In this document: one piece after another, positions 4,013 to 62,747 of the stretch
Numbering within the stretch: position 1 is the first letter of the stretch
Layout of the letters: each line of letters begins with the position of its first letter
NCBI RefSeq assembly: GCF_003019035.1
Contig: NZ_CP027447.1
Length of the DNA: 64,000 nucleotides
DNA from: Escherichia coli
GTDB taxonomy: Bacteria; Pseudomonadota; Gammaproteobacteria; Enterobacterales; Enterobacteriaceae
Direction: 5' to 3' (one strand)
The notes under the pieces: model-generated
What the model was told of the DNA's origin: nothing
Database searches by the model: none
What the model saw: the letters and a program-made list of their open reading frames with translations, nothing else
Made by a program: the position numbers and the translations under genes

Positions 4013-5425
4013 TCATTCCATTGCCCGATACACGGCTTCGCCAATTTGCTTCAGTGCTTCGCGATAGGTTTCGCTGAGCGGCAAAGCGCAGTTGATGCGC
4101 AGACAATTACGGTATTTGCCGGAAGCTGAGAAAATCGAGCCTGCCGCCACCTGGATTTTCATGCGGTATAGCTGCCGCGCAACGCAAACCATATCGACCT
4201 GTTCAGGCAATTCGATCCACAGTAAAAATCCGCCTTTCGGGCGCGTAATACAGATTTCGCAGGGAAAATATTCCCGTATCCAGCAGGTATAAAGCGCCAA
4301 ATTGCGCTGATAGATCTGCCGCATCCGCCGGATATGGCGATGATAGTGACCTTCCAGCACAAACGTTGCCGCCGCCATTTGCGTGGACGGCACATTAAAG
4401 CTGCTGATGGCATATTTCATATGCAGCAGTTTATCGTGATAGCGCCCCGGTGCGACCCAACCCACGCGCAGGCCTGGAGCAATACTTTTACTGAACGAGC
4501 TGCACAACAGCACTCGCCCGTCGATATCCCAGGAATGAATGGTCCGCGGGCGCGGATACTCCGTCGCCAGTTCGCCGTAGACATCATCTTCAAAAATCAC
4601 AATATCATGACGCTGAGCGAGAGAGAGAACGGCCCGTTTGCGCGCGTCCGGCATAATAAATCCCAGCGGATTATTACAGTTTGGCACCAGAATGATGCCT
4701 TTAATCGGCCACTGCTCCAGCGCCAGTTCCAGCGCTTCAACGCTGATGCCTGTTTCTGGATCGGTGGGGATTTCAATCACTTTCACGCCCATGCCGCGCA
4801 GCATCTGCATCGAACCGTAATAACAGGGGGATTCGACCGCGACAATATCGCCCGGTTTACACACTGCCATCAACGCCAGCGACATCGAGTTATGGCAGCC
4901 GCTGGTGATGATGATGTCATCGGCGGTGACCACCGAGCCGCTGTCGAGCATCAGGCGGGCAATCTGCTCGCGCAATACCCGCTGGCCGGCTAACAAGTCA
5001 TAACCGAGAACGGTTTGCAGATTATGCTGCACCACCCGGCTTAGCTCCCGCCACAGCGGTTTCAGGCTGGGCGTTTCGACATCCGGCGTGCTTTTACTTA
5101 ACGGAACAATGGAACTGTCGCTATGCGCCTCCAGCATATCCAGCACCTGATCCCACTGGGTAATTTCCACCGGGCGCTGCACCGGACGCGTCATCGGCGG
5201 TACTGGCGGCTGGGCTTTACGTTGTGCGACAAAATAACCCGAACGCGGCTGCGGAGTGATGAGCTTCATCGTCTCCAGCGTCTGGTACGCCTGCTGCACG
5301 GTGCTAATACTGACGCCGTGCTCCTGACTCAAGCTGCGCACCGACGGCAATTTCTCCCCGTGACGATACAGCCCTTGCTCAATCCGCTCTGCAAGCAGAG
5401 TCGCCAGATGTTGATAACGCGTCAT
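4013..5425 (-). CDS. yjiR: MocR-subfamily GntR regulator with aminotransferase-like (PLP) domain
   Basis: 470 aa; N-terminal HTH (LPSVRSLSQEHGVSISTVQQAY) plus large C-terminal fold-type I aminotransferase-like domain. Confidence 0.85.
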   Translation of the reverse strand: MTRYQHLATLLAERIEQGLYRHGEKLPSVRSLSQEHGVSISTVQQAYQTLETMKLITPQPRSGYFVAQRKAQPPVPPMTRPVQRPVEITQWDQVLDMLEAHSDSSIVPLSKSTPDVETPSLKPLWRELSRVVQHNLQTVLGYDLLAGQRVLREQIARLMLDSGSVVTADDIIITSGCHNSMSLALMAVCKPGDIVAVESPCYYGSMQMLRGMGVKVIEIPTDPETGISVEALELALEQWPIKGIILVPNCNNPLGFIMPDARKRAVLSLAQRHDIVIFEDDVYGELATEYPRPRTIHSWDIDGRVLLCSSFSKSIAPGLRVGWVAPGRYHDKLLHMKYAISSFNVPSTQMAAATFVLEGHYHRHIRRMRQIYQRNLALYTCWIREYFPCEICITRPKGGFLLWIELPEQVDMVCVARQLYRMKIQVAAGSIFSASGKYRNCLRINCALPLSETYREALKQIGEAVYRAME

Positions 5426-53041: not shown

Positions 53042-53761
53042 ATGGCTACCCCACACATTAATGCAGAAATGGGCGATTTCGCTGACGTAGTTTTGATGCC
53101 AGGCGACCCGCTGCGTGCGAAGTATATTGCTGAAACTTTCCTTGAAGATGCCCGTGAAGTGAACAACGTTCGCGGTATGCTGGGCTTCACCGGTACTTAC
53201 AAAGGCCGCAAAATTTCCGTAATGGGTCACGGTATGGGTATCCCGTCCTGCTCCATCTACACCAAAGAACTGATCACCGATTTCGGCGTGAAGAAAATTA
53301 TCCGCGTAGGCTCCTGTGGCGCTGTTCTGCCACACGTAAAACTGCGCGACGTCGTTATCGGTATGGGTGCCTGCACCGATTCCAAAGTTAACCGTATCCG
53401 TTTTAAAGACCATGACTTTGCCGCTATCGCTGACTTTGACATGGTGCGTAACGCGGTAGACGCGGCTAAAGCACTGGGCGTTGATGCTCGCGTTGGTAAC
53501 CTGTTCTCCGCTGACCTGTTCTACTCTCCGGACGGCGAAATGTTCGACGTGATGGAAAAATACGGCATCCTCGGCGTGGAAATGGAAGCAGCTGGTATCT
53601 ACGGCGTGGCTGCAGAATTTGGCGCGAAAGCCCTGACCATCTGCACCGTGTCTGACCACATCCGCACTCACGAGCAGACCACTGCCGCTGAGCGTCAGAC
53701 CACCTTCAACGACATGATCAAAATCGCACTGGAATCCGTTCTGTTGGGCGATAAAGAGTAA
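53042..53761 (+). CDS. deoD: Purine nucleoside phosphorylase DeoD-type
   Basis: 239 aa from [33 protein letters not shown]. Confidence 0.95.
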
Positions 53762-53793
53762 TTGTGTTTCGCTGAAAGGCGATTGCCTTGTGA

Positions 53794-53823
53794 AGCCGGA
53801 GCGGGAGACTGCTCCGGCTTTTT
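53794..53823 (+). terminator. Rho-independent terminator of the deo operon
   Basis: agccggagc-gggagact-gctccggct followed by ttttt. Confidence 0.55.
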
Positions 53824-53927
53824 AGTATCTATTCGTTTTTCTCTCCAGCTTGAATATTTTCGCTATACTTTTCAGTGAAATGTGTTAATAAATCTATTCA
53901 AGTATCTATTCACGAATCTATTCATTA

Positions 53928-55259
53928 ATGAGCGAACTGACCGATCTTTTACTGCAAGGGCCGCGTTCTGCCCCGGAATTGCGCCAGCGTCTGGCAATCA
54001 GTCAGGCGACGTTCTCACGCCTTGTTGCCAGAGAAAATCGGGTGATTCGCTTTGGTAAAGCACGGGCAACGCGATATGTACTGCTGCGTCCTTATCGCGG
54101 AATTGAGCGTATTCCCGTCTGGCGGGTGGACGATGCCGGAAAGGCGCATAAATTCGCCGACATCCGGTTGTGCTGGCCACAGGGAAGTTGTCTGGTAACA
54201 GGCGCAGATGGCGACGAACAGTGGTTTGATGGTTTGCCCTGGTATTTGACCGATCTGCGACCGCAGGGGTTTTTGGGGCGCGCGTGGGGCAGGAAGTTAG
54301 CCGCGCAACTGAATCTTACTGAAGATATCCGTCTCTGGCAGGAAGAAGATGTGCTCTACGCCCTGACCGTATTTAGCGGTGAATACACCGGCGGCTGGCT
54401 GGTCGGGGAGGGTAATTATCAGCGATGGATTACTGCACAACGCCCTGCGGAAATTCCTTTGGATCAAAAACTCACCCATTACGAACAACTGGCAAGCGAT
54501 GCTCTGGCAGGAGAAATTGTGGGTTCTTCTGCGGGCGGTGAGCAGCCAAAATTTACCTGCTATGCACAAACGCCGTCAGGCAATAAACATGTGCTGGTTA
54601 AATTCACCGTGCCACAGCAAACCGCGGTCAGCCAACGTTGGGGCGACTTGCTTATTGCGGAATCTATTGCCGCGCAAATCCTGCGCGACGGCGGGATCCA
54701 CGCCATCGAGTCAACGGTGCTTGTAACAAGTAACAGGCAGGTATTCCTTGAAGCGGAACGATTTGACTGCAAAGGTAACGATGGTCGCTTACCCATTGTG
54801 TCGCTGGAGGCGGTGCAGAGTGAGTTTATCTCTTCTCCGGGATCGTGGCCGGAGGCTATGCGCCGTTTGTGTGAGCAACAACTTGTCACTCACCAGAGCG
54901 TGGCGCAAACAGAAGTGATCTGGGCGTTTGGGCGACTTATCGCCAACAGCGATATGCACGCAGGCAATTTATCATTTTATTTATCTGAACCACCATTTGC
55001 GCTGACGCCCGTCTACGACATGCTGCCGATGGCCTATGCACCAAACAGCGCCGGAATGTTGCGTGATGCTGCCATTGAGGTGAGGTTTGATCTTAACGTC
55101 AGTAAAAGCGCATGGTTAACGGCGATCCCGCTGGCGCAGCAGTTCTGGCAAACGGTCGCCGGAGATCCGCGTATCAGCGAGGCGTTTCGCCACATTGCGC
55201 AGGAAATGCCGGAGAAAATCCGGCAAATCGAAGAGAAAGTTACCCGCATGGGCGGGTAA
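53928..55259 (+). CDS. yjjJ: HipA-like Ser/Thr kinase family protein YjjJ (N-terminal HTH + HipA-like kinase domain)
   Basis: 443 aa; N-terminal HTH (LRQRLAISQATFSRLVA); HipA-like catalytic motif NSDMHAGNLSF. Confidence 0.8.
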   Translation: MSELTDLLLQGPRSAPELRQRLAISQATFSRLVARENRVIRFGKARATRYVLLRPYRGIERIPVWRVDDAGKAHKFADIRLCWPQGSCLVTGADGDEQWFDGLPWYLTDLRPQGFLGRAWGRKLAAQLNLTEDIRLWQEEDVLYALTVFSGEYTGGWLVGEGNYQRWITAQRPAEIPLDQKLTHYEQLASDALAGEIVGSSAGGEQPKFTCYAQTPSGNKHVLVKFTVPQQTAVSQRWGDLLIAESIAAQILRDGGIHAIESTVLVTSNRQVFLEAERFDCKGNDGRLPIVSLEAVQSEFISSPGSWPEAMRRLCEQQLVTHQSVAQTEVIWAFGRLIANSDMHAGNLSFYLSEPPFALTPVYDMLPMAYAPNSAGMLRDAAIEVRFDLNVSKSAWLTAIPLAQQFWQTVAGDPRISEAFRHIAQEMPEKIRQIEEKVTRMGG

Positions 55260-56276
55260 CTACCGCACCGCCCCTGCCATCCACGTCGACAACTCCCGTA
55301 GCTCTTTTTCCTGGTCCGGGAAGTCAACCAACAGCGCTTCGCACTCCTGTTGCAGCATATCTGCGCGGTACAGGCAGCCTTGCAGTCGCCCGGCGAGGGC
55401 TTCCAGCGGCGCGGGGTTGAGGCTGTCGGTAAACACCTGGGCGCGGGTGATATGGCCTTTTTCAACGTCGAAATGCAGTTCCACGCCGCCCCAGGTGAAG
55501 CGTTCATCCAGCAGATGCGAGAACGCCGGAGCCTGACCGAAGTTCCACTCCCAGCTACTCTGACGGGCAAAGGTTTCGGCGAAGTTCGGCAAGTCTGGCG
55601 TTTTGTCCGGGGAGATGATTTCCGCTTCCACGCGCTCGCCATAATGGGCGAAAAAGGCCTCGGTTATGGCCTCGCAAACCTGCTCATGGGTAATTTCCGG
55701 CAGCAATTCGGTCAGATTGGTCACGCGGGAACGTACCGACGTAATGCCTTTCGCCGCCAGTTTCTTTTTATCCGGGTTGAGATAGTTTGCCAGACGGCTA
55801 AGGTCAGCATTGAGTAGCAAGGTGCCGTGATGGAAGCCGCGATCTTTAGTTTCGCGATAGGCTGAGCCTGAGACTTTGCGGTCGCCTTCGGCGGTTTTCA
55901 CCACCAGATCGTTACGGCCGGACGCTTCGGCGCTGACGCCGAGCGCGTTCAGAGCATTGAGCACAATCGACGTGGAGATAGTTTTATCGTACTCCGGCTT
56001 GCCTGCCATAAAGGTAAAACAGGTATTGCCGAGATCGTGGAACACCGCGCCGCCACCGCTACTGCGCCGCGCCAGGCGGACGTTATCTTCTTCCATCCGC
56101 CGGGTATTACACTCTTTCCACGGGTTCTGCGCGCGACCAATCACTACCGTGTCGGCATTGCGCCAGAGAAACAGAACGCGCTGCGTGGCGGGCATCTGGC
56201 GAAAAATACACTCCTCTACCGCCAGGTTAAACCACGGGTCGTAAGAGTCAGAGATGAGCAGGCGTAATGTGGACAT
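55260..56276 (-). CDS. lplA: Lipoate-protein ligase A
   Basis: 338 aa [25 protein letters not shown]... Confidence 0.9.
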
Positions 56277-56303
56277 AACGATTTCCTTTCTTGTAGTAAT
56301 GAG

Positions 56304-56948
56304 TCACTCTTTTTTCTCGCTTTCTTCCTCTTCCGGCACCGGTTTACTGGCGGTTAACAGGAAGGGCGATTGCTGCCAGCGGGTGCGTTTACCCTGTAGC
56401 AGCGTGCGGGTCAGCACTACGCCGATTGCCAGCGAGAGCAGCAACATCAGGCGTAAAATGTTAGTGGTGTTATCCACCTGTTGGGCTTCGGTGGCGAGCG
56501 TATGGGTGTCGAGCGTCAGGCGCAGATAGCCGAGCGGTCCGTTTTTACCCGCAATGGGTTCGACAATCTGCTGGTTAAAATAGCCGCCCGCTTTTTTGCC
56601 GTCGAGCGCCAGCCGGTCGCGCACGTCGACGCTTTCGCCAGAACGGGCGATAAGATCGCCTTGCTCATCATATACGCCCGCGTCGAGAATGCGACTTTCA
56701 TCCGTTAACTGATCGAGGATCGCCTGAATGCGTTTTTCATCCGGTGAGTCGGTACGCATCAGCGGTGCAACGTTCAGCGTCACCTGCCGCGCCAGGGTGC
56801 GGGCCAGTTCTTCCAGTTGCGGATTACGCTGTCGCTGGTGGTTTTGACTAAACCATGACGCTCCCTGCATCAGCGCCACTAACAAGGCAAGACAGAACAG
56901 GACAATCACTGCCCGATGCAGCCGGAATTTCAGTTTTGTGCGAGCCAT
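56304..56948 (-). CDS. ytjB: Inner-membrane protein YtjB (Smp)
   Basis: 214 aa with N-terminal TM helix. Confidence 0.8.
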   Translation of the reverse strand: MARTKLKFRLHRAVIVLFCLALLVALMQGASWFSQNHQRQRNPQLEELARTLARQVTLNVAPLMRTDSPDEKRIQAILDQLTDESRILDAGVYDEQGDLIARSGESVDVRDRLALDGKKAGGYFNQQIVEPIAGKNGPLGYLRLTLDTHTLATEAQQVDNTTNILRLMLLLSLAIGVVLTRTLLQGKRTRWQQSPFLLTASKPVPEEEESEKKE

Positions 56949-61079: not shown

Positions 61080-62747
61080 TTACTTCGCAATACGCTTGTA
61101 CTTGATACGCTTCGGCTCCAGTGCGTCTGCGCCCAGCGTGCGTTTCTTGTACTCTTCGTACTCAGTAAAGTTACCTTCGAAGAACTCAACTTTACCTTCA
61201 TCCTGGTAATCCAGAATGTGTGTGGCGATACGGTCGAGGAACCAACGGTCATGCGAGATAACCATCGCGCAGCCCGGGAACTCCAGCAGGGCGTTTTCCA
61301 GCGCGCGCAGGGTTTCGATATCCAGGTCGTTGGTCGGTTCGTCGAGCAGCAGCATGTTGCCGCCAACCTGCAGCAGCTTCGCCAGATGCAGACGACCACG
61401 CTCACCACCGGAGAGTTCGCCAACGCGTTTACCCTGATCAACCCCTTTAAAGTTAAAGCGACCAACGTAGGCGCGGCTTGGCATCTCGGTGTTACCGATC
61501 TTCATGATATCCAGCCCGCCGGAAACTTCTTCCCAAACGGTTTTGCTGTTATCCATTGAGTCACGGAACTGATCGACAGATGCCAGTTTCACCGTTTCAC
61601 CTAAAGTGATGGTGCCGCTGTCTGGCTGTTCCTGACCAGAGATCATACGGAACAGGGTTGATTTACCCGCGCCGTTCGGACCGATGATCCCGACGATCGC
61701 CCCTTTCGGGATCGAGAAGCTCAGATCATCAATCAGCAGGCGATCGCCGTAAGATTTACGCAGGTTGCTGACTTCCAGCACTTTATCGCCCAGACGCGGT
61801 CCAGGCGGAATAAACAGTTCGTTGGTTTCGTTACGTTTCTGATATTCGGTGCTGTTCAGCTCTTCAAAGCGCGCCAGACGTGCTTTACCTTTCGACTGAC
61901 GGCCTTTAGTTCCCTGACGTACCCACTCCAGCTCTTTCTCGATCGACTTACGACGCGCTGCTTCTTGTGAAGCTTCCTGCGCCAGACGTTGATCTTTCTG
62001 CTCCAGCCAGGAGGAGTAGTTACCTTCCCACGGAATACCTTCACCGCGGTCCAGTTCGAGGATCCAGCCCGCAACGTTATCAAGGAAGTAACGGTCGTGG
62101 GTAATCGCCACAACGGTGCCTTCGAAGTCGTGCAGGAAGCGTTCCAGCCAGGCCACGGATTCGGCATCCAGGTGGTTGGTCGGTTCGTCGAGCAGCAGCA
62201 TGTCTGGTTTTTCCAGCAGCAGGCGGCACAACGCCACGCGACGACGCTCACCACCGGAGAGGTTAGCGATTTTCGCGTCCCAGTCCGGCAGACGCAGCGC
62301 ATCCGCCGCACGCTCCAGCTGAACGTTCAGGTTGTGACCGTCGTGAGCCTGAATGATCTCTTCCAGACGGCCTTGTTCAGCGGCCAGCTTGTCAAAATCG
62401 GCATCCGGATCGGCGTACAGTGCATACACTTCATCCAGACGTTTCAGGGCGTTAACCACTTCAGAAACCGCCTCTTCAATGGACTCACGCACGGTGTGTT
62501 CCGGGTTCAGTTGCGGTTCTTGCGGCAAATAACCAATCTTGATATCCGGTTGCGGACGCGCTTCGCCTTCGATGTCTTTATCAATGCCCGCCATAATGCG
62601 CAGCAGGGTGGACTTACCCGCGCCGTTCAGACCCAGGACACCAATTTTTGCCCCAGGGAAGAAACTCAGAGAGATGTTTTTCAAAATATGACGTTTCGGC
62701 GGAACAACTTTGCCGACACGATGCATGGTATAAACGAATTGAGCCAC
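61080..62747 (-). CDS. ettA: Energy-dependent translational throttle protein EttA (ABC-F ATPase)
   Basis: 555 aa; two ABC cassettes (GLNGAGKST, GPNGAGKST; LSGGER signatures). Confidence 0.95.
   Translation of the reverse strand: MAQFVYTMHRVGKVVPPKRHILKNISLSFFPGAKIGVLGLNGAGKSTLLRIMAGIDKDIEGEARPQPDIKIGYLPQEPQLNPEHTVRESIEEAVSEVVNALKRLDEVYALYADPDADFDKLAAEQGRLEEIIQAHDGHNLNVQLERAADALRLPDWDAKIANLSGGERRRVALCRLLLEKPDMLLLDEPTNHLDAESVAWLERFLHDFEGTVVAITHDRYFLDNVAGWILELDRGEGIPWEGNYSSWLEQKDQRLAQEASQEAARRKSIEKELEWVRQGTKGRQSKGKARLARFEELNSTEYQKRNETNELFIPPGPRLGDKVLEVSNLRKSYGDRLLIDDLSFSIPKGAIVGIIGPNGAGKSTLFRMISGQEQPDSGTITLGETVKLASVDQFRDSMDNSKTVWEEVSGGLDIMKIGNTEMPSRAYVGRFNFKGVDQGKRVGELSGGERGRLHLAKLLQVGGNMLLLDEPTNDLDIETLRALENALLEFPGCAMVISHDRWFLDRIATHILDYQDEGKVEFFEGNFTEYEEYKKRTLGADALEPKRIKYKRIAK

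Follow-up and report, generated by a model that had tools for sequence, protein, structure and literature searches.

The yjjJ gene in the 64,000-nucleotide stretch of Escherichia coli DNA analyzed here (the window) is hipH, which stands as a single gene and belongs to clade X of the HipA kinase superfamily (Gerdes 2021). On balance we favor the view that it is a self-contained autoregulated toxin, with its fused winged HTH acting on an array of ATCTATTCA repeats to shut off its own promoter. The explanation as a whole, which combines the hipH identity with the proposed repeat binding and with Rho-based termination at the junction with lplA, is in our judgment very probable. The domain fusion, the missing antitoxin, the toxicity and the overlap with lplA transcripts have each been published before; new here are the repeat array, the co-variation of the repeat motif with the recognition helix, and the presence of the gene in 25% of complete E. 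coli genomes. Gerdes (2021) asked what controls HipH in the absence of an antitoxin, and the conserved array, whose motif varies together with the recognition helix, provides a concrete candidate operator for such control.

The coding sequence and its domains are positioned in the window as follows.
53928..55259, + strand: yjjJ/hipH coding sequence, 443 aa, from the ATG start through the TAA stop (open reading frame, Pfam, NCBIfam, K-12 comparison)
53928..54092, + strand: predicted winged HTH, residues 1-55 (AF2 secondary structure, Foldseek)
54108..54227, + strand: predicted four-stranded beta domain, residues 61-100, between the HTH and the kinase core (AF2 model)
54525..55211, + strand: HipA_C kinase core as placed by Pfam, motif positions, profile alignment and Foldseek, residues 200-428

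The original prediction described YjjJ as a HipA-like kinase, and this is borne out by matches to the NCBIfam YjjJ equivalog (NF007297; 674.3 bits over residues 1-442, the cut-off being 401) and to Pfam HipA_C (PF07804; 74.3 bits, with the cut-off at 30.5, E 1.4e-20) as well as by the fold and the catalytic motifs, so that a HipA-like domain is clearly present. The domain search proposed at that time also included HipA_N, which has no match, the N-terminus being made up instead of a winged HTH and a small beta domain. The gene ends at 55259 and not, as first given, at 55260, which is the first base of the lplA stop codon. No frameshift or loss of HipA_C was seen in yjjJ. The product is identical to K-12 HipH (YjjJ, b4385) at 431 of 443 residues (97%), with T439 here in place of A439 among the 12 amino acid substitutions, and the K-12 gene lies in the same deoD-hipH-lplA locus with the same 0-nt junction, the upstream repeats, and all of the phospho-sites and catalytic residues. 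It is annotated as yjjJ in 1,345 E. coli genomes and as hipH in MG1655, and PADLOC assigns HipH to no defence system.

Sequence and structural model alike identify residues 200-428 as a Ser/Thr kinase core of the HipA/HipT type. Its three motifs are intact and invariant in 35 orthologues, namely GSSAGGEQPKF (S200/S201) at the Gly-rich loop, NSDMHAGN (D342) for catalysis and PVYDML (D364) for Mg binding. Foldseek comparison of the AF2 model (pLDDT 89.9) with the PDB gives 19 top matches that are all HipA (E 5e-11 to 7e-8, TM about 0.55), followed by HipT and CtkA, and every structural neighbor of HipH is a kinase. A single-sequence phmmer search of the PDB returned nothing for HipH; HipT and HipA came up only with a profile search, which aligns HipH with HipT(Lp) at SaGGeqPK/SVQGVQKK, NsDMHaGN/NEDMHLKN and PvYDmL/PAYDLL, with an E-value of 1.5e-8. 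By this measure no solved relative is closer than HipT of hipBST (E. coli O127, Legionella), with which HipH shares four collinear kinase motifs and two serines at the Gly-rich loop; however, HipT is neutralized by a separate HipS and accompanied by HipB, whereas HipH has neither partner gene. HipA of the hipBA systems of E. coli and S. oneidensis has the same HipA_C core and fold, the same Gly-rich loop with its autophosphorylated serine, and the same catalytic and Mg-binding aspartates, but it is encoded next to hipB and lacks the fused winged HTH of HipH. The reported substrates also differ, being RpmE and CsrA for K-12 HipH and GltX for HipA.

The further claim that an N-terminal HTH is fused to the kinase holds as well, on the strength of AF2 models and structural matches to the ArsR family, with Pfam giving a weak match (MarR_2, E 0.03-0.09). 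In the models residues 1-55 adopt an ArsR/MarR-like winged HTH (H3-8, H15-22, H26-35, E39-42, E49-53; pLDDT about 90-96) whose predicted recognition helix spans residues ~24-35 (ISQATFSRLVAR), with S25, Q26, S30 and R31 invariant in 35 orthologues. The best Foldseek matches of this domain are the ArsR/SmtB winged-HTH repressors HlyU and SqrR (rmsd 1.6-1.8 Å over ~50 residues), and the matches including BigR and CzrA superimpose at 1.6-3.1 Å over 49-58 residues with 21-33% identity; the shortness of the domain keeps the E-values weak (0.26-0.7), and the superpositions are tight. HipA_N and Couple_hipA gave no match at E≤1 in a Pfam search with the full protein or at E≤10 with N-terminal pieces, and the beta domain has no significant structural match by Foldseek. 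HlyU, SqrR, BigR and CzrA are stand-alone dimeric repressors that act on palindromes, whereas the winged HTH of HipH is fused to a kinase and its candidate sites are direct repeats with a 12-bp period, unlike the palindromes of ArsR/SmtB and MarR-type repressors.

Four features were located in the spacer between deoD and yjjJ.
53793..53825, + strand: deoD intrinsic terminator, a 10-bp GC-rich inverted repeat with a T run (from sequence)
53827..53835, + strand: distal repeat copy upstream of the promoter-like hexamers, reading ATCTATTCG here and ATCTATTCA in K-12
53864..53898, + strand: promoter-like region (Shimada 2014 proposal, SELEX, orthologue alignment)
53892..53924, + strand: three tandem ATCTATTCA repeats (53892-53900, 53904-53912 and 53916-53924) with a 12-bp period, the predicted HipH operator

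The original prediction that yjjJ has no separate upstream antitoxin gene is supported, in that the upstream gene is deoD and the 166-bp spacer contains, besides the terminator of deoD, only junk ORFs (38-58 aa), none of them credible and none HipB-like. A hidden upstream antitoxin was considered as a candidate and rejected for lack of a credible ORF in the spacer, being effectively refuted by the sequence. Rescue of YjjJ toxicity by HipB in trans could be taken to mean that this is a canonical two-gene hipBA-type module in which the antitoxin gene has been overlooked, but this is exceedingly improbable, given the content of the spacer, the presence of lplA downstream and the absence of HipB palindromes. 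Of the features of a canonical hipBA operon, an upstream hipB and HipA_N/Couple_hipA are likewise missing. The HipB operator palindrome TATCC-N8-GGATA does not occur near yjjJ, and the one match with a single mismatch in 64 kb, at 61508, is at the level expected by chance. The single-gene arrangement is furthermore shared with K-12, Salmonella and E. albertii, the last two having deoD-yjjJ-lplA synteny with no extra HTH gene, and it extends across more than 80 loci; HipH of clade X has been described as monocistronic with an N-terminal HTH (Gerdes 2021, PMC8262856). An Rfam search gave one match only, at chance level (E 0.36).

The ATCTATTCA array ends 3 nt before the yjjJ ATG, and its three copies are the only exact ones in the 64 kb, where 0.32 would be expected. 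A repeat array lies upstream of every Enterobacterales orthologue although the rest of the spacer is not conserved, and the distal copy is present at nearly all of these loci. Conservation of the array ranges from Escherichia to the beta-proteobacteria, and it accompanies hipH homologues into the latter and into non-syntenic loci of Erwinia, Yersinia and Serratia. Among loci encoding an SQxTxSR helix, at least three ATTCA cores at exact 12-bp spacing are found in 47 of 74 and at least two in 65 of 74 – counts inflated by shared ancestry, since the co-variation of helix and motif consists of two clade-level switches only – as compared with one of 16,600 shuffles and none of 9,535 other stretches. 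Where a clade departs from this helix, as two do, its repeats differ too while keeping the 12-bp period, CDRSTxTR being associated with ..GATGCA and SRATLxR with ..GTTTCA; in the Rheinheimera type the helix CDRSTITR goes with the repeat ATTGATGCA. That the motif changes where the recognition helix changes suggests autoregulation, and we infer that the HipH HTH probably binds the ATCTATTCA direct repeats, which differ in this respect from the HipB palindromes that serve as hipBA operators. A literature search for ATCTATTCA returned unrelated papers only, and no description of the predicted operator came up in the literature searched.

A consensus scan of 53600-56500 revealed no sigma-70 promoter, and the promoter assignment thus rests on the orthologue alignment and on published SELEX. 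Shimada 2014 proposed TTTTCA (53869-53874) and TCTATT (53893-53898) separated by 18 nt; alternative hexamers are TATACT and TAATAA (53886-53891) with 16 nt between them, and orthologues in the same register have TTTAC(A/C), 16-17 nt and TA(T/A)AAT. Genomic SELEX has placed an RpoD site in the deoD-yjjJ spacer, along with H-NS. The 5' leader of yjjJ is short and has no Shine-Dalgarno sequence. With the promoter in this position, the ATCTATTCA repeats would overlap the -10 region and fill the leader, and the further copy would lie upstream of the -35; bound at these sites, HipH would be expected to repress its own promoter, and the fused HTH would then take over the DNA-binding role of HipB. Autoregulation of this kind would fit the published binding of c-di-GMP and the raised transcription of hipH from its native promoter, if the ligand releases HipH from the operator.

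Alternatively, the repeats could be structural or serve a factor other than HipH, be it MarA, H-NS or some unknown regulator, with HipH not binding them. Reg-Seq of the K-12 yjjJ promoter reported two repressor sites and no activator site, with one of the repressor sites assigned to MarA, and the spacer has been linked to H-NS. In K-12, ChIP-exo with myc-tagged YjjJ reported no binding sites, although this negative result is weak because YjjJ was very poorly expressed. The 75% of E. coli genomes without yjjJ retain the repeats, although a yjjJ-less ST69 strain has already lost one of them. We consider a role for another factor unlikely, because the array travels with hipH homologues to distant and non-syntenic loci and because the repeat sequence switches exactly where the HipH recognition helix switches; binding by HipH itself is therefore the reading that we prefer.

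Both Ser/Thr kinase activity and growth inhibition have been demonstrated for the 97%-identical K-12 protein, which autophosphorylates and phosphorylates RpmE and CsrA (Gratani 2022, PMC9948734). Its overproduction is toxic and cells are rescued by HipB in trans (PMC9948734), and the overexpression assay suggested in the original prediction was thus already published for the K-12 protein (PMC9948734). How HipH exerts its toxicity is disputed. Mutations in the Mg- and ATP-binding sites lowered toxicity (Gratani 2022, PMC9948734), and this kinase-dead result conflicts with the report of Liao 2024 that toxicity requires the HTH and not the catalytic motif and is attributable to DNase activity. 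Deletion of residues 340-372 leaves the protein toxic whereas deletions in the HTH do not, HipH localizes to the nucleoid, a HipH-GFP fusion cleaves plasmid DNA in vitro, and c-di-GMP binds with a KD of 7.6 µM and inhibits the cleavage (Liao 2024); RecA induction and DNA degradation were also seen by Gratani (PMC9948734). It is nonetheless somewhat doubtful that HipH acts chiefly as a DNA-damaging nuclease, because no nuclease domain or fold was detected in it, HipA_C being its only Pfam domain and its structural neighbors all kinases, because the Mg- and ATP-site mutations cut toxicity, and because DNase activity was assayed with a GFP fusion of a protein that is insoluble.

The presence of yjjJ in only 25% of complete E. 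coli genomes is a polymorphism that matters when HipH persistence phenotypes are extended from K-12 or UPEC to the species. The alternative allele encodes an 87-aa HTH protein whose phage relatives are only 30-38% identical. Its matches at 87-97% identity in records labeled as plasmids are probably E. coli chromosomal sequence, since the records are 0.4-4.9 Mb in size and several of them chromosome-sized. An apparent deletion remnant in WB61 was rejected; the sequence contains NN and is probably an assembly artifact.

The junction of yjjJ with lplA and the regions flanking it contain four features of interest.
55260..56276, - strand: lplA (lipoate-protein ligase A), the convergent neighbor
55238..55261, - strand: perfect 10-bp hairpin spanning both stop codons, inside yjjJ codons 437-443, a candidate lplA terminator
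55683, + strand: equivalent of K-12 Rho region 4623524(+), lying antisense to lplA 424 nt beyond the yjjJ stop
54931, - strand: equivalent of K-12 Rho region 4622772(-), lying antisense to yjjJ 329 nt beyond the lplA stop

The two stop codons abut as originally predicted, with the yjjJ TAA followed directly by the lplA TAG (the reverse complement of 55260-55262) at a spacing of exactly 0 nt, and the same junction is present in K-12 and E. albertii. The accompanying statement that there is no room for independent terminators is correct insofar as there is no intergenic space, but a hairpin is accommodated within the last yjjJ codons and the K-12 Rho regions lie inside the neighboring genes. As yjjJ and lplA have no DNA between them, their transcripts would enter each other's coding regions, and K-12 data make it likely that Rho stops both of them 300-450 nt in. 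Adams 2021 (supplementary file 2) lists region 4623524(+) with a score of 3.56 (p 1.8e-8) and region 4622772(-) with a score of 2.66 (p 7.9e-5); the window positions 55683 and 54931 were mapped from these K-12 coordinates, and their distances past the junction place both transcripts within the neighboring gene. In the first 100 nt of the yjjJ read-through RNA, C outnumbers G by a ratio of 2.1.

T439, the substitution noted above, renders the junction hairpin perfect, with a folding energy of -17.6 kcal/mol as compared with -11.6 in K-12, where the minus-strand RNA has an A.C mismatch. The minus-strand tail that follows is UUUCUCUUCGAUUU, with five U residues in its first 8 nt, and in this strain the hairpin and U tract may also stop lplA transcripts. 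The stem and tail could even constitute an efficient intrinsic lplA terminator, or a bidirectional one, that insulates the two genes despite the zero spacing. This is rather unlikely, as no U tract follows the hairpin on the plus strand (the yjjJ side), and terminator-like sites in the region number four against a shuffle expectation of 3.7. The hairpin is also missing in Salmonella, Citrobacter and other genera, in several of which the stop codons overlap, and in K-12 the Rho-dependent signal on the lplA strand runs 329 nt into yjjJ, and Adams 2021 (supplementary file 2) gives no Term-seq 3' end at the hairpin. Termination by Rho within the neighboring genes is the preferred reading, and yjjJ-lplA has been named among the convergent excludons of E. 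coli (2025).

Several complete E. coli genomes match the region 53700-55400 at 100% identity and annotate it as deoD, yjjJ and lplA. The two convergent genes are placed as follows:

53928-55259, plus strand: yjjJ (hipH), ATG start, TAA stop, 443 aa
55260-56276, minus strand: lplA, TAG stop, the reverse complement of the CTA beginning at 55260

The identification of the gene in the original prediction as the HipA-like kinase YjjJ was correct, as the product matches the NCBIfam equivalog 'type II toxin-antitoxin system HipA family toxin YjjJ' across residues 1-442 with 674 bits (cut-off 401 bits), and Pfam HipA_C at residues 200-428 (E 1.4e-20). The open reading frame ends at 55259, so the predicted end at 55260 was one base too long. 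Of the two domains proposed for a search, HipA_C is thus present and HipA_N was not detected in the Pfam search of HipH, nor was Couple_hipA. Compared with K-12 HipH, the protein has 12 substitutions in 443 residues; it retains the catalytic D342 (NSDMHAGN), D364 (PVYDML) and every autophosphorylation site that has been published (S200, S201 and S217). A profile of 35 orthologues matches the solved structures of HipT(Lp) (E 1.5e-8) and Shewanella oneidensis HipA (3e-5), with alignment of the Gly-rich loop, catalytic motif and Mg-binding motif. The best 19 PDB matches to an AlphaFold2 model (pLDDT 89.9, pTM 0.88) are all HipA structures, followed by HipT and CtkA.

The predicted fusion of an N-terminal HTH to this kinase holds: HipA_C is found by Pfam, and residues 1-55 are modelled as a winged HTH (helix-helix-helix-strand-strand, pLDDT 89-96), although the HTH is weak in Pfam (MarR_2, E 0.03-0.09). 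Its nearest structures are the ArsR/SmtB repressors HlyU, SqrR, BigR and CzrA (rmsd 1.6-3.1 Å, identity 21-33%). In the model a small beta domain follows at residues 61-100, and a structure search with it matched nothing convincing.

HipH is a well-studied gene, and the observation as posed was already known. YjjJ was given the name HipH in a paper that describes a monocistronic operon with the HTH at residues 15-34 and states its control to be unknown (Gerdes 2021, PMC8262856). HipH autophosphorylates and is a Ser/Thr kinase acting on RpmE S69 and CsrA S56/S59; its overproduction causes filamentation and dose-dependent toxicity, which is rescued by HipB in trans and lessened by Mg-site and ATP-site mutations, and antibiotic tolerance is unaffected (Gratani 2022, PMC9948734). 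The proposed checks, a domain search and a toxicity assay on overexpression, have therefore already been done. Another report (Liao 2024, PMC11452175) claims that toxicity needs the HTH and not residues 340-372, and describes DNA cleavage by HipH-GFP, inhibition of cleavage by c-di-GMP (which binds HipH with a KD of 7.6 uM) and an increase in hipH transcription by c-di-GMP via the native promoter. The two studies conflict, since mutations at the Mg and ATP sites reduce toxicity in the first, whereas deletion of the catalytic motif (340-372) does not in the second. We treat toxicity through DNase activity as a rival to the kinase reading because neither Pfam nor the structural matches reveal a nuclease domain or fold in HipH.

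The absence of an adjacent HipB was also predicted accurately. The upstream gene is deoD, and the 166 bp spacer contains only the deoD terminator and junk ORFs of 38-58 aa; no HipB-type operator was found near yjjJ. The single-gene deoD-yjjJ-lplA arrangement is common to Salmonella and E. albertii, in agreement with the monocistronic arrangement described previously (Gerdes 2021, PMC8262856). One relative with a 69% identical HipH has a 163-aa ORF between deoD and yjjJ (L007, 3332-3823; L008, 201-692). This ORF has no Pfam match on record, and may resemble REP-associated tyrosine transposases.

Ahead of yjjJ lies a repeat array:

53892-53924: three exact ATCTATTCA copies with a 12-bp period, directly before the yjjJ ATG
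53827-53835: a fourth, distal copy (8/9 match), upstream of the array

The 64-kb window has no further exact copy, against an expectation of 0.32 in all; the three overlap the SELEX-proposed promoter TTTTCA-18-TCTATT and fill the yjjJ leader. The -35 hexamer is weak and no Shine-Dalgarno-like sequence is seen between the repeats and the ATG (53900-53927), in keeping with the report that K-12 natively expresses the gene at a very low level. The array lies in the same register upstream of all Enterobacterales orthologues examined, the rest of the spacer being unconserved, including in Erwinia, Pantoea, Yersinia and Serratia, where hipH is not beside lplA. It also precedes beta-proteobacterial homologues (37-40% identity), immediately past a TAnAAT box; the loci with repeats are L006, L007 and L009-L088. 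Among 74 loci with an SQxTxSR recognition helix, ATTCA cores spaced by exactly 12 bp number at least three in 47 and at least two in 65, against 1/16,600 shuffles and 0/9,535 other stretches from those loci. Six Rheinheimera/Alishewanella loci combine a CDRST(I/V)TR helix with AT(T/C)GATGCA repeats, and three Comamonas loci a SRATLxR helix with ATCGTTTCA repeats, both with a 12-bp period. This co-variation, amounting to two clade-level switches, is as predicted if the HipH HTH recognizes the repeats directly, which would imply autoregulation of the yjjJ promoter. The repeats are thus a candidate HipH operator. Several results weigh against the operator reading: myc-tagged YjjJ gave no binding sites in ChIP-exo, Reg-Seq assigned to MarA one of the two repressor sites that it reported at the yjjJ promoter, and the array persists in yjjJ-less E. 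coli. A literature search, incomplete in coverage, found no described HipH repeat operator, and the prediction is a modest, testable addition.

The zero spacing claimed for yjjJ and lplA is exact, with the yjjJ TAA ending at 55259 and the lplA stop starting at 55260, and K-12 is likewise 0 nt. Close convergent packing of the two genes is the ancestral state in Enterobacteriaceae.

Stop-to-stop gap between yjjJ and lplA
E. coli, E. albertii: 0 nt
Salmonella: 4 nt
Citrobacter: 7 nt
Siccibacter / Kosakonia: 12 / 15 nt
Pluralibacter, Buttiauxella, Cedecea, one Enterobacter sp.: -4 nt, stops overlapping as CTAA (L014, L018-L021, L033; junction near 4326-4329)
Leclercia, Pseudocitrobacter: 70-118 nt, insert REP-like by eye

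No terminator is conserved at the junction across these genera. A perfect 10-bp inverted repeat at 55238-55261 spans both stops, folds at -17.6 kcal/mol and is followed on the minus strand by UUUCUCUUCGAUUU; a U tract is absent on the plus strand. From its sequence this hairpin looks like an lplA terminator within yjjJ codons 437-443, whereas in the K-12 allele (A439) the minus-strand RNA hairpin carries an A.C mismatch (-11.6 kcal/mol). Terminator-like sites in the region equal the shuffle expectation in number, and the hairpin by itself is therefore weak evidence. In K-12, one Rho termination region, at 4623524(+), lies 424 nt beyond the hipH stop and antisense to lplA; another, at 4622772(-), lies 329 nt beyond the lplA stop and antisense to yjjJ. 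A Term-seq 3' end is listed for neither gene (Adams 2021). RNA that reads through the yjjJ stop is rich in C over its first 100 nt (C/G 2.1), and yjjJ-lplA is among the convergent excludons of ExcludonFinder (2025). The proposal that there is no room for independent terminators thus stands for the 0 nt intergenic space, but not for the genes themselves, given the K-12 Rho regions inside each neighbour and the candidate lplA terminator hairpin inside yjjJ. Most likely both transcripts invade the neighbouring gene and are stopped by Rho, with some intrinsic lplA termination possible in the window allele.

The yjjJ gene is present in 1,347/5,426 complete E. coli genomes, with 95.8-100% identity throughout. 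Other genomes sampled, including O157:H7 (L003, 932-1218), L004 and L005, have 287 bp in the exact place of 53931-55260, from the yjjJ first codon to the lplA stop. E. albertii and Salmonella carry yjjJ at the locus, and the replacement is therefore probably derived within E. coli. It encodes an 87-aa Xre-type HTH protein (Pfam HTH_3, E 8e-7) on the lplA strand, opposite to yjjJ and 31 bp downstream of lplA. This gene is intact in O157:H7 and has an internal stop or frameshift in other strains, being a pseudogene at L004 923-1186 and L005 911-1173. The 12-bp repeats remain in E. coli without yjjJ, and in ST69 one of the three is gone; the lost repeat and the HTH pseudogenes suggest that the locus decays when hipH is no longer there. 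An apparent yjjJ deletion remnant in E. coli WB61 (L001, ~4140-4150), annotated as a partial 'transcriptional regulator', has NN at its breakpoint and is more probably an assembly gap than a true deletion. The yjjJ copy at L032 3001-3321, in a record titled Kluyvera genomosp. 3, is interrupted by a premature stop some 107 codons in and is probably a pseudogene; its flanks look Salmonella-like.
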